In this document: positions 56,865-61,038 of the stretch, piece after piece | How the letters are laid out: every line of letters starts with the position of its first letter | Position numbering within the stretch: the first letter of the stretch is position 1 | Assembly: GCA_964633925.1 (NCBI GenBank) | Contig: CAZWKB010000003.1 | Coordinates: 4,598-68,597 of the forward strand | Reading direction: 5' to 3' | DNA length: 64,000 bases | Source: an uncultured bacterium | Lineage (GTDB): Bacteria > Margulisbacteria > WOR-1 > JAKLHX01 | Translations under genes and position numbers: made by a program | The notes under the pieces: generated by a model | Database searches by the model: none | What the model was told of the DNA's origin: nothing | The model's input: only the letters and a program-made list of their open reading frames with translations

Positions 56865-56880
56865 TTAGGAGGTGATGATT

Positions 56881-57390
56881 GTGTCTAAAAAATGGTATGT
56901 TGGCTATTTTTATAAAGGGTATCTTAATCAATTGATTAATTCGTTTCATAAACACGAAGAATTTGCAGATGTTAAGATGTGGTATCCGATGCTTTCTAAA
57001 GTAGTAGTAAAAGATGGAAAAAAAGAAATCATCACCTATCCTATGTTTGAAAATTATGTATTATTCGAATTTGAAGAAGATTCTCTAATATGGAAAGAAA
57101 TTTTAAGGTCTACTCCAGTTATCTCGTTTTTAAAAGAAGGTTCTAGACCTGTGGCAATAAAAGATTATGAAGTTGAGCATATAAAAAATCTTGAAGATAA
57201 GCAAAGCGTTGTAGATTATAGTTCTTTAATAAATAAGAGAGTTATGATTATTGGTGGACCTTTTGCAAATTTTGTTGGTACATGCAAATCTATTATCAAA
57301 AACAAATATAAGGCTAGAGTTTATGTAGAAATGTTCGGAGTTGTCGAAAGGTCTTTGGAAATAAACCTTGAACATTTAAAGCCGTTATAG
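56881..57390 (+). CDS. NusG/RfaH/LoaP-like transcription elongation factor (NGN + KOW)
   Basis: SKKWYVGYF...YPMFENYVLFEF is NGN-like. KRVMIIGGPFANFVGTCKSI is a KOW motif. GTG 56881 lies 8 nt after AGGAGG; the ORF-track start is 56872. Confidence 0.6.
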   Translation: MSKKWYVGYFYKGYLNQLINSFHKHEEFADVKMWYPMLSKVVVKDGKKEIITYPMFENYVLFEFEEDSLIWKEILRSTPVISFLKEGSRPVAIKDYEVEHIKNLEDKQSVVDYSSLINKRVMIIGGPFANFVGTCKSIIKNKYKARVYVEMFGVVERSLEINLEHLKPL

Positions 57391-57400
57391 GTGGTGCAAA

Positions 57401-57622
57401 ATGATTAAGTATATTGTATATCCCGGTAGTATGATGAGTAAAAACGACAACCAAATACATCATATAAGTGCTCATCAACTTATATGTCTTTATGGAGTTA
57501 AACGTGAAGAATGCATTATTGCAAGTTCCACAGACAGAATACAAAAAATGGACTCTTCACATTTAACTCCATTATATCCTCGTTATGATGGGAACTATAA
57601 ATTAGATAAGGAAGGTGTTTAA
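57401..57622 (+). CDS. Small hypothetical protein
   Basis: 73 aa, preceded by GGTGGTG. No motif recognised. Confidence 0.4.
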   Translation: MIKYIVYPGSMMSKNDNQIHHISAHQLICLYGVKREECIIASSTDRIQKMDSSHLTPLYPRYDGNYKLDKEGV

Positions 57623-57626
57623 TTTG

Positions 57627-58232
57627 ATGGAAATTATTGCATTCGAGGGAATTGACAAATGTGGTAAAGCTACTCAGACAAATGTTTTAGTAGAAAAGCT
57701 TAGAAAAGCTGGTAAGAATGTAGTCAAATCTGAATTTCATAGGTATGATACACCAACTGGCAAGCTCATACAGGAATGGTTATACAAGAAATATGATGTT
57801 GACGACCAAACAATTGAATTTATTATGGCGGCAGACAAACAGGCTCAACAACAATGGTTTAAGCAATTAAATCATGATGGTGTTGACTTTTTAGTTTTGG
57901 ACAGATATATTTTAAGTCAAGAAGTTTATGCTATATCAAAAGGTCTTAATAAAATTTTCGTTCAGATGTTACAGAGCTGTTTAATAAAGCCAGGCGTGGA
58001 AATTCTTATCGATATACCGGCAGATTTGAGCATGAATAGAAAAGGCAAGCATGGCGATAATGATAGATATGAAGAGGATTTTAAGTTCTTAAATTCAGTC
58101 AGAACCAATTATCTAAGCTTATGTTCTCAAAATGGTATCGATAGGTTAAGGACCATAATCGATGGTACTCAGACAATCGATAAAGTCAGCGATGATATTT
58201 GGAACTATGTAAAAAAATTATACAAAATTTAA
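57627..58232 (+). CDS. tmk: Thymidylate (dTMP) kinase
   Basis: IAFEGIDKCGKATQ P-loop, DRY motif (LVLDRYILS) and a lid region. ATG 57627 follows AAGGAAGGTG. Confidence 0.8.
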   Translation: MEIIAFEGIDKCGKATQTNVLVEKLRKAGKNVVKSEFHRYDTPTGKLIQEWLYKKYDVDDQTIEFIMAADKQAQQQWFKQLNHDGVDFLVLDRYILSQEVYAISKGLNKIFVQMLQSCLIKPGVEILIDIPADLSMNRKGKHGDNDRYEEDFKFLNSVRTNYLSLCSQNGIDRLRTIIDGTQTIDKVSDDIWNYVKKLYKI

Positions 58233-58250
58233 AATATTTTTAACAAAAGC

Positions 58251-58279
58251 GTTTACTTTTGGCGTTTTTGTAATATAAT
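58251..58279 (+). promoter_or_regulatory. Promoter (GTTTAC-N17-TATAAT)
   Basis: GCGTTTACTTTTGGCGTTTTTGTAATATAATTATATTAAC. Confidence 0.5.
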
Positions 58280-58298
58280 TATATTAACAACGGTTTAT

Positions 58299-58437
58299 CG
58301 CCTTAAAAATTCCTTGACAATTGCAAAAGGAGTCGCAATCCGCTTAATATGCTATTCTAGGTGGCACGGTTAAAGAACTAACGTTCGAGAGGTTCGAATC
58401 CTCAATATTGAGGCTTTGTCGAGGAATTTTTAAGGTG
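58299..58437 (+). ncRNA. Structured RNA: 22-bp terminal stem enclosing a tRNA-like acceptor/T-arm minihelix (not a canonical tRNA)
   Basis: 58299-58320 pairs with 58416-58437 (22 bp, 2 G-U). Inside, the 7-bp stem TTAATAT (58344-50)/ATATTGA (58405-11) abuts a T-arm that contains GGTTCGAATCC (58391-58401). It lies between the promoter and the HU gene RBS. Confidence 0.45.
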
Positions 58438-58470
58438 TTAAACCGAATAAAAATTAGGAGGTAATTTATT

Positions 58471-58833
58471 ATGGCAGGAATCGGTGATATCGCAAAAGCG
58501 GCAGGCGTAAAATACGAAGCCGTAGCATCAACAATCGAAGGAATCAGACAGCTTTTATTCGCAGGTGAGAAAATCACACTGCAGGACTTCGGTACATTTT
58601 ATATCGACGTTCAGGATAAAAAGACAGCCCGCAAAGTTGCAACAGCTGAGGAAATTAAGGTGCCTGAGAAATCAGTTCCTAAGTTCCGTTTCAACTATAC
58701 TTTCAAAACCAAAATCGCTGAAAGCGTAAAGGTTGACAAGGATAAGTTGAAAAAGAAAAGAGAACGTAAAGCAAAGTACGATGCGAAAATGGCTGAAAAA
58801 GCTGAGGCCGGCACAAAGGCAAAGAAGAAGTAA
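58471..58833 (+). CDS. HU/IHF-family DNA-binding protein with Lys-rich C-terminal tail
   Basis: IAKAAGV...IEGIRQLL..GEKITLQDFGTFYI......KTARKVATAEEIKVPEKSVPKFRF is the HU fold pattern. The KKKRERKAKYDAK tail follows. Confidence 0.7.
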   Translation: MAGIGDIAKAAGVKYEAVASTIEGIRQLLFAGEKITLQDFGTFYIDVQDKKTARKVATAEEIKVPEKSVPKFRFNYTFKTKIAESVKVDKDKLKKKRERKAKYDAKMAEKAEAGTKAKKK

Positions 58834-58853
58834 TTTCGTTTGCCCGCTGCTAA

Positions 58854-58882
58854 AGCCGACCTATAATAGGTCGGCTTTTTTA
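58854..58882 (+). terminator. Rho-independent terminator
   Basis: AGCCGACCT-ATAAT-AGGTCGGCT followed by TTTTT. Confidence 0.85.
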
Positions 58883-59491: not shown

Positions 59492-60406
59492 ATGGCGAAA
59501 AAGTATGATGTGGCAATTGTTGATGGGAATAACATGTTTTTTAAGGGCTTTTCGGTTCATAAAGATGCATCTGTAAAAATAGAAGGTAAAGAGGTTTTTA
59601 CAGGTGGAGCTTTTGGACTTATCAATACATTGCTAACAATTCGTAAAATGTATTTGAAAGAAGATTCAACTATTTTAGTAGCCTGGGATAGAGGTTATGT
59701 AAGAAGGTCACTTATCTATCCGGAATATAAAGCTAATAGAAACAAAGAAGAATGGGACGAATATGAGAATTTCAAAACTCAGCTTAAGCAAGCACAATAT
59801 ATTCTAAACATTCTTGGTATTAGGCAGGCTTTCAAACAAGGTGAAGAAGCAGATGATATCTGTGGAACCCTGTCTAAGCTACAAAAGGATGCCGGCAAGG
59901 AGGTTATAGTGGTAAGCGCTGATAAGGATTACCAGCAGCTTCTAGATGACTCTGTCGACCTTTTAGCACATAAAGGTGCCAATAATATAAAGCTTTGGAA
60001 TACACAATCATGGGCTGAAAATAGAGGATATCATCCAAAGTATTTTTCATATTTCTTGGCATTAAACGGAGATGCTGGCGACAATATCCCAGGAATACTT
60101 GGTATTGGAGAAAAAACTGCAGATAAGTTCATTATAGAAAATTTTGAACTTATAGATGCTATGATTCATGGAAGACCTTACGATGCTTTCATACCGGAAA
60201 AGAAGAGTGCAGCTTTGACAAAATTGCTTGCTGGTGTTTCTAATTTACAATTATCATACAAGCTTGCATTAATAGACAAAGATATAAAGGGAATTAAAAT
60301 CCAGAAGCATACTAAAAACATGGAAATGCTTGAAGAGATATTTGAAACATTCAAATTCCATAGTCTTTTAAAGGAGAATAACTGGAAACTATTGGAGGTG
60401 TTATAA
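59492..60406 (+). CDS. 5'-3' exonuclease / flap endonuclease (Pol I N-terminal domain-like)
   Basis: AIVDGNNMFFKGF, VAWDRG...YPEYKANR, GEEADDICG, SADKDYQQL and GDAGDNIPGILGIGEKTA (H3TH). Confidence 0.8.
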   Translation: MAKKYDVAIVDGNNMFFKGFSVHKDASVKIEGKEVFTGGAFGLINTLLTIRKMYLKEDSTILVAWDRGYVRRSLIYPEYKANRNKEEWDEYENFKTQLKQAQYILNILGIRQAFKQGEEADDICGTLSKLQKDAGKEVIVVSADKDYQQLLDDSVDLLAHKGANNIKLWNTQSWAENRGYHPKYFSYFLALNGDAGDNIPGILGIGEKTADKFIIENFELIDAMIHGRPYDAFIPEKKSAALTKLLAGVSNLQLSYKLALIDKDIKGIKIQKHTKNMEMLEEIFETFKFHSLLKENNWKLLEVL

Positions 60407-61038
60407 TGAAAAGACGCTCATCAAGCCATTTTGCAACAAAAGGTGACCTCGGCTATATTCCTTTAGAAGAAGCTATAGAACTGTATGAATTTGCCGACCT
60501 TGAAATAGCAGAGGAAGATGAAGAATTAAAAGAGCAAAGACGATTAATGTTTGATGAAATTGATGAGCTTGCTAAAAAGCATCTTAATACTAAAGAGTTT
60601 TGTATCTACCAATTAGTTATTCACGAAAATAAAAAAACTTCTGAAATAGTTGAAATAATGAACTATAACAGTTGGCGCACAACGCAGAATGCTATTGAAA
60701 GAATATTTAAAATTCTTAAAATTTATTATGATTATTCAAAAATTGATAGGGAAGATTTGGAATATGAGATATCAAGAAATTTTAGCAAGTTTGAACAGAG
60801 AATAGTCAAATACTTAGAAGAGCGTCTTACTATACAGCAGATAAATAATAAGCTTGGCAAAAAAAGATTTTGCTATACGAAAACACATTCTTTAGTTAAA
60901 AACATCATGAGTCGTTTAGATGATATGGGTGGCAGTTGCAGGCAGTTTTATAATTTCTTAGACCAGATTAGGAAGTTTAAAGATTCTTGCAATTTTGATA
61001 ATAGTGACGGTGTCACAATAATAAATAAGGAGGTGTAA
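60406..61038 (+). CDS. Putative transcription regulator with two sigma-region-4/LuxR-like HTH modules
   Basis: FCIYQLVIHENKKTSEIVEIMNYNSWRTTQNAIERIFKIL and FEQRIVKYLEERLTIQQINNKLGKKRFCYTKTHSLVKNIMSRL. Confidence 0.4.
   Translation: MKRRSSSHFATKGDLGYIPLEEAIELYEFADLEIAEEDEELKEQRRLMFDEIDELAKKHLNTKEFCIYQLVIHENKKTSEIVEIMNYNSWRTTQNAIERIFKILKIYYDYSKIDREDLEYEISRNFSKFEQRIVKYLEERLTIQQINNKLGKKRFCYTKTHSLVKNIMSRLDDMGGSCRQFYNFLDQIRKFKDSCNFDNSDGVTIINKEV

Follow-up and report, generated by a model that had tools for sequence, protein, structure and literature searches.

What is encoded by the strongly self-complementary sequence in front of the gene for an HU-like DNA-binding protein in the window, i.e., the whole 64-kb stretch of DNA that was analyzed? 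The initial annotation had read it as an RNA with a long terminal stem around a tRNA-like acceptor/T-arm minihelix, and had likened it to bacterial Y RNAs. As judged from the encoded proteins, the window comes from a large tailed phage that has not been cultivated; it contains genes for baseplate and tail proteins, a DnaB-like helicase, a primase, a Pol III alpha-like polymerase and RecA, together with those for ThyX, a dCMP deaminase, RuvC and a NusG-like protein, and its HU protein was located on a 111-kb contig (about 111 kb of phage in total). Searches by DNA similarity revealed no close cultured relative of this phage, only a weak match of the dTMP kinase to a Bacillus phage. The sole hint at a host is the MAG label Sedimentibacter. 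Our analysis showed that the element is a folded, untranslated 5′ leader in which a 30-bp stem clamps a degenerate tRNA look-alike (Table 1).

Table 1. Coordinates of the HU leader element and its surroundings in the window
Feature	Position	Strand	Evidence and remarks
Thymidylate kinase (dTMP kinase) gene	57615-58232		Upstream neighbor of the element
Sigma-70-type promoter, TTTACT-16-TATAAT	58252-58279	+	Promoter scan; preceded by a conserved GCG
P1, 5′ strand of closing stem	58291-58320	+	Fold, inverted-repeat search
P2, small hairpin GGA-GTCGCAA-TCC	58329-58341	+	Between P1 and the 7-bp helix, 2 nt upstream of the helix
P3, 5′ strand TTAATAT of 7-bp acceptor-like helix	58344-58350	+	Pairs with 58405-58411
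D-like connector	58351-58374	+	Alignments; conserved CUAGG motif at 58357-58361
P4, inner hairpin GAAC-TAAC-GTTC in anticodon-arm position	58375-58386	+	Conserved, covarying
T-arm, stem GAGG/CCTC, loop TTCGAAT (58393-58399)	58389-58403	+	Comparison of nine loci
P3, 3′ strand ATATTGA	58405-58411	+	After unpaired A 58404; followed by the GGCT linker 58412-58415
P1, 3′ strand of closing stem	58416-58445	+	Pairs with 58291-58320
Shine-Dalgarno sequence AGGAGG	58456-58461	+	Read from sequence and fold; 10 nt past the stem, 9 nt before the ATG
HU-like DNA-binding protein gene (120 aa, Lys-rich C-terminal tail)	58471-58833	+	Pfam PF00216, E = 1.4e-13
Intrinsic terminator ending the leader-plus-HU transcript	58852-58878	+	Terminator scan

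The closing stem described by the initial annotation (22 bp with two G-U pairs, 58299-58320/58416-58437) is present at these coordinates, and the helix is longer still, because seven more base pairs follow beyond a U-U mismatch (58298/58438). P1 comprises 27 Watson-Crick pairs, two G-U pairs and the U-U mismatch (29 pairs over 30 positions), and its 30-nt arms, with 90% complementarity, make up an inverted repeat longer than any other in the 64-kb window. The hairpin formed by the arms only was calculated at about −41 kcal/mol (duplexfold, −42.5). The 156-nt RNA folded at −60.9 kcal/mol, compared with −33.0 ± 4.1 kcal/mol for 200 dinucleotide shuffles (z = −6.9), none of which was as good, and the minimum-energy fold already held the 7-bp helix, the small inner hairpin and the T hairpin. 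Inside the stem, the 7-bp helix pairs as it had been drawn. It had also been described as directly continuous with the T hairpin, and here an unpaired A (58404) intervenes. The T-arm was confirmed with a refinement: the tRNA T-loop is present, and the stem consists of four Watson-Crick pairs (58389-92/58400-03) with an A-A opposition at the fifth position. The remaining segment, which had been counted as 37 nt without further arms, measures 38 nt and includes the small conserved hairpin P4, which carries no anticodon because its loop is of four nucleotides. In the D-like connector, both a canonical D-arm and U8 are absent, and RNAalifold predicted just a weak 3-bp helix there. The T-loop sequence GGTTCGAATCC occurs a single time in the 64-kb window, and a descriptor scan for a T-loop hairpin plus a 7-bp closing helix matched this intergenic site alone in the window.

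The promoter that had been proposed upstream of the element was confirmed (Table 1). It belongs to a class of phage promoters (GCGTTwA..TGnTATAAT-TATATTA), and the same motif was found upstream of HU in L001, L002, L005, L008, L009, L013-15, L045, L046 and L053. Three other copies of this class occur in the window, all with short leaders, and only the HU promoter among the four is followed by a structured one. Transcription is predicted to start at about 58286-58287, which puts the beginning of P1 about 5 nt after the start. The terminator scan detected no terminator between the element and HU (58280-58470), and none was found between the kinase gene and the promoter. As a promoter lies before the element and the sole terminator lies after HU, the element was assigned to the 5′ leader of the HU mRNA; it is probably carried on read-through transcripts as well. 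The Shine-Dalgarno sequence is unpaired in the predicted fold and thus not sequestered.

To find relatives, HU homologs were traced to contigs from the IMG/VR, JGI and Logan assemblies, all of them uncultivated. The 7-bp helix and the T-arm were kept in the orthologous HU leader at eight further independent loci, seven of which also kept the closing stem and the first hairpin. In L001 and L009/L010 (HU 86% identical), the same element was found, with a long stem that differs in sequence and stays complementary around the same tRNA-like interior. L002 and L008 (HU 83-87%; type B) retained a 26-28-bp stem and the first hairpin, and their interiors are unrelated to the tRNA-like one, differ from each other and are devoid of a T-arm. 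In L005 and L012, the same promoter is followed by a short unstructured leader without any element, suggesting that the element is dispensable for HU expression. More distant loci, namely L013, L014, L015/16, L045 and L053/54 (HU 69-74%), have multi-module leaders of 400-500 nt, and the last module in L013-16, L045 and L053/54 is a GC-rich version of the window architecture. Its 5′ part consists of a 9-12-bp closing stem, an A-rich linker, a small hairpin and the 7-bp helix, and its 3′ part of a substitute for the D and anticodon arms (22-68 nt, carrying a CUAG motif), the T-arm, the 3′ strand of P3, one A and the 3′ strand of the closing stem. The module lies directly upstream of HU whichever gene precedes it, be it that of dTMP kinase, a 75-aa ORF or a 154-aa ORF. 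The HU leader of L046 contains, at 694-777, a tRNA-scoring sequence without a closing stem (Rfam, 44.3 bits; tRNA-Ile by ARAGORN), with an anticodon stem of 7 bp and a loop of 14 nt; since this leader is orthologous, the module looks tRNA-derived. The L003/L004 leader showed no significant fold (z = −0.8).

Further relatives were few in the collections searched. IMG/VR yielded two related contigs only, and a metagenome scan yielded three distant loci; the species-genome collection contained none. An exact-string search with the T-arm gave no match, and a degenerate pattern of the D region gave 23 chance matches in coding sequence together with the known L001 contig, which was the only genuine match in IMG/VR.

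Comparison of these loci supported every helix. Across nine loci, 62 of the 63 cells of P3 hold a standard pair, with two to five pair types per column, as illustrated by TTAATAT/ATATTGA, CTAAATG/CATTTAG, CCGAATG/CATTCGG, GCGGAGC/GTTCCGC, CTGAGTG/CACTCAG and CCCGTTA/TGACGGG. The T-arm conforms to GG-TTCRAnn-CC at all nine loci, and its outer stem pairs covary. P4 covaries as well (window, GAAC/GTTC; L001, GAGTC/GGCTC; L009, GAATC/GATTC; L013, CACTCGGG/CTCGAGTG). P2, the weakest helix (85% of cells paired), stands at the same place with different sequences in every member that has the closing stem, and P1 shows compensatory changes in L001, L009, L002 and L008, where it has 26-28 pairs. In an alignment across types (window, L001, L009, L013 and L045), 95.8% of the cells are paired and 21 of 35 pairs have changed on both sides; the GC-rich relatives alone gave 96.8% paired cells and compensatory changes in 17 of 26 pairs, these sets being of few sequences in alignments fitted to the model. 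The covariation score across types was 0.669, against 0.238 in shuffles (0/500) and at most 0.115 with a slid partner, and RNAalifold recovered the same five helices independently. Thus, the compensatory changes that the initial annotation had suggested looking for in related phages were found, with both the stem and the T-arm-like hairpin conserved, and the anatomy it had drawn was correct. The tRNA-like features are under purifying selection.

Because MAFFT misregisters the T-loop by one column, covariance models were seeded from near-identical pairs with hand-set structures. With the model built from L009/L010 only, the element of the window scored 81.4 bits (E = 1e-18); L001 was recovered as well, as were, among the GC-rich loci, L013 and L045 (both at a rough E of about 2e-3), and the alignments span all helices. 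The reciprocal model with a GC-rich seed aligned the window element correctly, but at 10.8 bits (E = 1.9). The link between the two subtypes rests on the L009/L010-seeded model together with synteny.

We then asked whether the element belongs to a described RNA family. In line with the initial view that it is not a tRNA gene, ARAGORN found no tRNA gene in the window, L001, L009, L013-15, L045 or L053; in the Rfam 15 covariance search, no family matched the element and no tRNA match was obtained within 58150-58550, in both cases even at E ≤ 10. A canonical tRNA was rejected also on its inner hairpin, which has a 4-nt loop instead of a 5-bp/7-nt anticodon arm. The likeness to tRNA nevertheless extends to a 7-bp acceptor stem and a T-arm (G53, T54, psi55, C56, R57, A58 and C61) at all nine loci, within limits: a spacer of 1-2 nt lies between the T stem and the acceptor 3′ strand, the T stem is 4 bp in the window, and tertiary positions of the tRNA core, U8 among them, are not retained. 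A tmRNA was rejected for want of an ARAGORN or Rfam match and of a tag reading frame.

The proposed likeness to YrlA and a Ro60 partner was not borne out. YrlA has the order T-arm, acceptor hairpin and D-arm, the anticodon position being taken by the Ro-binding 5′/3′ stem (Chen et al., 2014; PMC4201824), whereas the element follows the order of tRNA, i.e., acceptor 5′ strand, D-like strand, hairpin, T-arm and acceptor 3′ strand, relative to which YrlA is circularly permuted. Y RNAs bind Ro60/Rsr through a GNCGAA/GGUCCGA-type motif; YrlA carries GNCGAAN0-1G near its 5′ end, as the putative Rsr contact, and lies within about 4 kb of rsr, on the strand of that gene (PMC4201824). Neither feature was found here: a regular expression for GNCGAAN0-1G, applied to eight family members, found no match in the window, L001 and L009, and one incidental match inside the acceptor strand of L013, and a Pfam search detected no TROVE domain in 30 ORFs (all 27 of at least 270 aa in the window and three shorter ones beside the element). 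The element further differs from Y RNAs in its position in an mRNA leader, its additional P2 hairpin and its true 7-bp acceptor-like helix. Only the atypical Yrn1 of Deinococcus radiodurans shares its topology, namely a long stem formed by the ends and carrying a tRNA-like module with a canonical T-arm, in the same order of terminal stem, D-loop-like strand, short "anticodon" hairpin and T-arm (PMC4201824).

Several non-tRNA readings of the leader were rejected as well. A leader peptide starting from the ATG at 58349, which is conserved in position, would have 3, 12 and 30 codons in the window, L009 and L001, respectively, and is not preceded by a proper ribosome-binding site. The minus-strand ORF 58344-58577, overlapping the element and HU, was treated as spurious. 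Pairing of the T-stem CCUC with the Shine-Dalgarno sequence would involve only 4 bp and is not conserved. A terminator, attenuator or riboswitch was dismissed on the basis of the terminator scan, the unpaired Shine-Dalgarno sequence and the Rfam search.

The structure is solid and its function unproven; the element probably shapes the HU message. We tentatively favor, with a probability of roughly 40%, a cis-acting processing and stability cassette for this message. The transcript, starting about 5 nt before the stem, would have its 5′ end buried in the 30-bp helix; the duplex would be cut by host RNase III in this AT-rich lineage, and the acceptor/T minihelix may also engage the tRNA-maturation machinery (RNase P, RNase Z). 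Cutting would split a compact tRNA-like RNA of about 100-130 nt from the HU mRNA, which would keep a short leader with a very strong ribosome-binding site (perfect AGGAGG) and become independent of transcripts that read through from the nucleotide-metabolism genes upstream. These nuclease steps and their effect on HU expression are inferred. The module would be a tRNA-derived domain whose acceptor-like helix is stacked on the T-arm and whose D and anticodon parts have degenerated. For RNase P and RNase Z, an acceptor/T minihelix is the smallest unit that suffices for recognition, and T-loop enzymes recognize it as well. The cassette is favored because the minihelix has been kept while the D and anticodon parts decayed, because of the linkage to HU, and because the 30-bp stem lies about 5 nt from the 5′ end. 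The constant location in the HU leader and the short leaders at the three other promoters of the class tie the module to HU expression.

The alternative of the initial annotation, an RNase III processing stem that would yield a mature HU mRNA along with a released small RNA, agrees with all observations and would form part of this preferred explanation. A 30-bp stem near the 5′ end has the geometry of RNase III processing stems and of 5′-terminal stabilizers, and processing stems of this kind are found in rRNA, scRNA and SP82 early mRNA (PMC4838370, PMC1935012). Near-perfect duplexes of at least 20 bp, or about two helical turns, the length of an RNase III substrate, occur in the window, L001, L009, L002 and L008, and the closing stems of L013-15, L045 and L053 are of 9-12 bp, too short for RNase III alone, so that an RNase III step cannot be the ancestral or shared function. 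Moreover, RNase III of B. subtilis has been described as an enzyme of narrow specificity (PMC4838370), so that a long duplex is not automatically a substrate. RNase P cuts tRNA-like substrates other than tRNA, among them certain mRNAs and, from phages, the M3 and C4 RNAs (PMC11143913). The minihelix would probably be a poor substrate for it, given the closing stem (P1 is entered 0-4 nt downstream), the P2 hairpin abutting position −1 (0-2 nt upstream) and the lack of a 3′ CCA. A domain destined for release by RNase P or RNase Z would need just the reverse of such a clamp, which counts against the cassette, as do the replaced tRNA-like interiors of the close relatives L002 and L008 and the element-free leaders of L005 and L012.

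At the DNA level, the element could be read as a miniature mobile element bounded by inverted repeats, as a cruciform, or as a signal for replication or packaging, and the 30-nt terminal inverted repeats and the clean presence or absence at one site between related phages would fit such readings. However, the closing stems contain eight G-U against two C-A oppositions and the plus strand folds better than its reverse complement at four of five loci, which indicates an RNA feature of the coding strand; the interior helices likewise covary as plus-strand RNA, the arms diverge between relatives yet stay complementary, and the 95-nt spacer disfavors cruciform extrusion. With a single copy in the window and no flanking target-site duplication, a MITE-like element was rejected, and we regard any DNA-level role as highly improbable. 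An autoregulatory operator, in which HU binds the long duplex, three-way junction and tRNA-like L-shape of its own leader and thereby represses or tunes translation or stability, appears rather unlikely, and several observations speak for it. The leader shape would mimic the distorted nucleic acids that HU prefers, and E. coli HU has been reported to bind tRNA, tmRNA and structured and hairpin RNAs (PMC12152304); structured modules travel with the HU gene whatever is upstream, most of the distant relatives have another conserved pseudoknot module in the same leader, and of the four promoters of the class only that of HU has such a leader. The persistence of the stem and junction around a replaceable interior in type B would also suit a protein that reads shape rather than sequence. 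But shape reading leaves the kept T-loop (GGTTCRAnnCC) and the exactly 7-bp helix unexplained, the Shine-Dalgarno sequence lies 10-30 nt off, outside the structure, and L005 and L012 have no structured leader at all.

Conservation of the T-loop would be explained if the element were a stable tRNA mimic on a double-stranded stalk that acts in trans, as a decoy or scaffold for a tRNA-recognizing factor of the host or the phage, and merely profits from the strength of the HU promoter. T4 species 1 RNA and the tRNA-like domain of tmRNA can be cited as analogs. The purifying selection on the tRNA-like features and the topology shared with D. radiodurans Yrn1 fit this proposal, and the tRNA-scoring sequence of L046 suggests that tRNA-type small RNAs are made from the HU-leader region. 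We nevertheless consider it improbable: the 30 ORFs searched in the window include no Ro/TROVE gene and the element has no Ro-binding motif and no Rfam match, it has neither a terminator nor a promoter of its own, core positions such as U8 are lost, and every occurrence found is in an HU leader (one copy in the 64 kb and, in IMG/VR, the match in L001). Similarly improbable is a passive relic, that is, a decaying tRNA gene held in a 5′-terminal hairpin that shields the mRNA from 5′ exonuclease, with functionless tRNA details. The start of the stem about 5 nt from the predicted 5′ end, the interior swapped in type B or lost in other relatives, and the degenerate D and anticodon parts of 22 to 68 nt would all agree with a relic, but P3 and the T-arm have been maintained by compensatory substitutions across HU proteins only 60-75% identical, and the GC-rich module, about 300 nt from the 5′ end and behind other modules, is no 5′-terminal stabilizer. 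A broader proposal, which we regard as doubtful, is that HU leaders carry an undescribed family of tRNA mimics on a double-stranded stalk that acts via a tRNA-recognizing partner, either through translational autoregulation by bound HU or as a released scaffold or decoy of a host factor; the released version might have a Ro-independent function like that of Y RNAs, or protect against tRNA-targeting defense nucleases.

tRNA-like modules in RNAs other than tRNA are of a known kind, while the architecture and context described here are without a match in Rfam 15, and our literature searches found nothing that combines a closing stem, a hairpin and a minihelix in a phage HU leader. tRNA-shaped modules recur where RNAs borrow the machinery that handles tRNA, as in tmRNA, Y RNAs, viral 3′ ends and mascRNA, and the element would add a covariation-supported case in an mRNA leader of a bacterial virus, tied to a gene whose abundant product coats the chromosome. 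A module that directs processing, as in the preferred cassette, would be a counterpart of "tRNA punctuation" in bacterial phages; should the module be bound by HU or another factor, a nucleoid protein would be controlled post-transcriptionally in a new way. In this uncultivated phage group, the HU leaders form a hotspot of modular, exchangeable RNA domains that are missing from current family databases.

Among known systems, the RNase III stems around rRNA and B. subtilis scRNA precursors and in early mRNAs of SP82, T7 and lambda likewise place a long duplex around a structured RNA or before a cistron, and the phage sites, like the element, closely precede a strong ribosome-binding site within an early or middle mRNA. 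The classic phage sites, however, are simple hairpins with internal loops and have no clamped tRNA-like domain, the relatives with 9-12-bp stems would not qualify, and cleavage of the element is a prediction. T4 gp32 regulates its own expression via a leader pseudoknot. Like the element, this gene 32 operator is a structured 5′ leader that goes specifically with one gene, encoding an abundant DNA-binding protein, but its structure is of another type, and binding of the leader by HU is hypothetical. An acceptor/T-arm minihelix without a decoding role is shared with the C4 antisense precursor of P1/P7, the M3 RNA of phi80, the T4 stable RNAs, plant-virus TLS and mascRNA of MALAT1. Those tRNA-like RNase P substrates are also embedded in longer transcripts, and several are of phage or viral origin; the element differs in that its 3′ side enters the closing helix without a single-stranded RCCA, its 5′ side abuts a hairpin and one nucleotide breaks the acceptor/T stack, and its cleavage is only predicted. 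The tRNA-like domain of tmRNA similarly combines an acceptor helix, a T-arm and a reduced D-analog with a long helix that substitutes for one of the usual arms. In tmRNA, however, the anticodon stem is the arm so replaced, and CCA is carried on free acceptor ends. tmRNA itself has been reported among the RNAs bound by HU in E. coli (PMC12152304).

The leaders of the HU-like gene were compared between the window and the loci on contigs of uncultivated relatives that were reached via HU homologues (handles beginning with L). Two of these leaders, termed type B, share their closing stem and first hairpin (P2, the small hairpin between the closing stem and the 7-bp acceptor-like helix) with the window element, while unrelated hairpins occupy the place of the window-type interior. 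The type B interiors are replaced inside a conserved stem, and those of L002 and L008 are also unlike each other; this pattern suggests that RNA domains are exchanged in a cassette-like manner within this stem.

More distant relatives carry a second conserved leader module upstream of HU, an H-type pseudoknot formed between ACCnnnnGG in the loop of a hairpin and GCCnnnnGG further downstream. The pseudoknot covaries clearly, and 3′ of it lies the hairpin TTCCTACTnAGTGGAA, which is invariant. The module matched nothing in Rfam and does not occur in the window; it appears to be an undescribed RNA motif, putatively binding a protein or a ligand. Within the HU leader of L046, one of these relatives, a sequence that lies within the pseudoknot module rather than where a window-type element would lie was scored as a tRNA (Rfam, 44.3 bits; ARAGORN, tRNA-Ile gat), and its anticodon stem of 7 bp encloses a loop of 14 nt. 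The GC-rich relatives, with long multi-module leaders and short closing stems, additionally possess a small covarying hairpin (GGCTA..TAGCC, GCTGA..TCAGC, GGGCT..AGCCC) that overlaps in part with the 3′ strand of the closing stem. This hairpin could serve as a 5′ stabiliser of a processed mRNA or represent an alternative pairing.

Coordinates of features in the window and in the HU loci of relatives
Feature	Location	Remarks
Type B leaders	L002:2789-2967; L008:479-639	
Pseudoknot module	L013:~790-950	also L014, L015, L017, L045, L046, L047-50, L053/54, L003/04
tRNA-scoring sequence	L046:694-777	
Small covarying hairpin	L013:1150-1170	also L014, L015, L045, L053; between tRNA-like module and Shine-Dalgarno sequence
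Recurrent promoter-like motif	window 28341, 35632, 50766, 58249 (+)	GCGTTwA - ~17 nt - TGnTATAAT, then TATATTA
NusG/KOW-like protein gene	window 56872-57390	
Inverted repeat	window 57492-57520 / 57544-57572	29 nt, 86% complementary, 23-nt loop; inside conserved 73-aa ORF (57401-57622)
GIY-YIG endonuclease ORF	L001:1606-1914; L009:385-693	between NusG-like gene and 75-aa ORF
HU-like gene	window 58471-58833	
210-aa ORF	window 60406-61038	

The recurrent motif is probably the signature of one temporal class of phage promoters, and only the HU copy among its four copies in the window is followed by a long leader. The inverted repeat was not conserved at the corresponding place in L001, L002 and L009. 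The inserted GIY-YIG ORF of L001 and L009, which has no counterpart in the window, is probably a free-standing homing endonuclease. A Pfam search of the 210-aa ORF returned no match; putative helix-turn-helix segments that recall region 4 of sigma factors were discerned in it by eye. The HU-like protein of the window extends about 35 aa past the HU fold as a Lys/Arg-rich C-terminal tail, which is kept in relatives.
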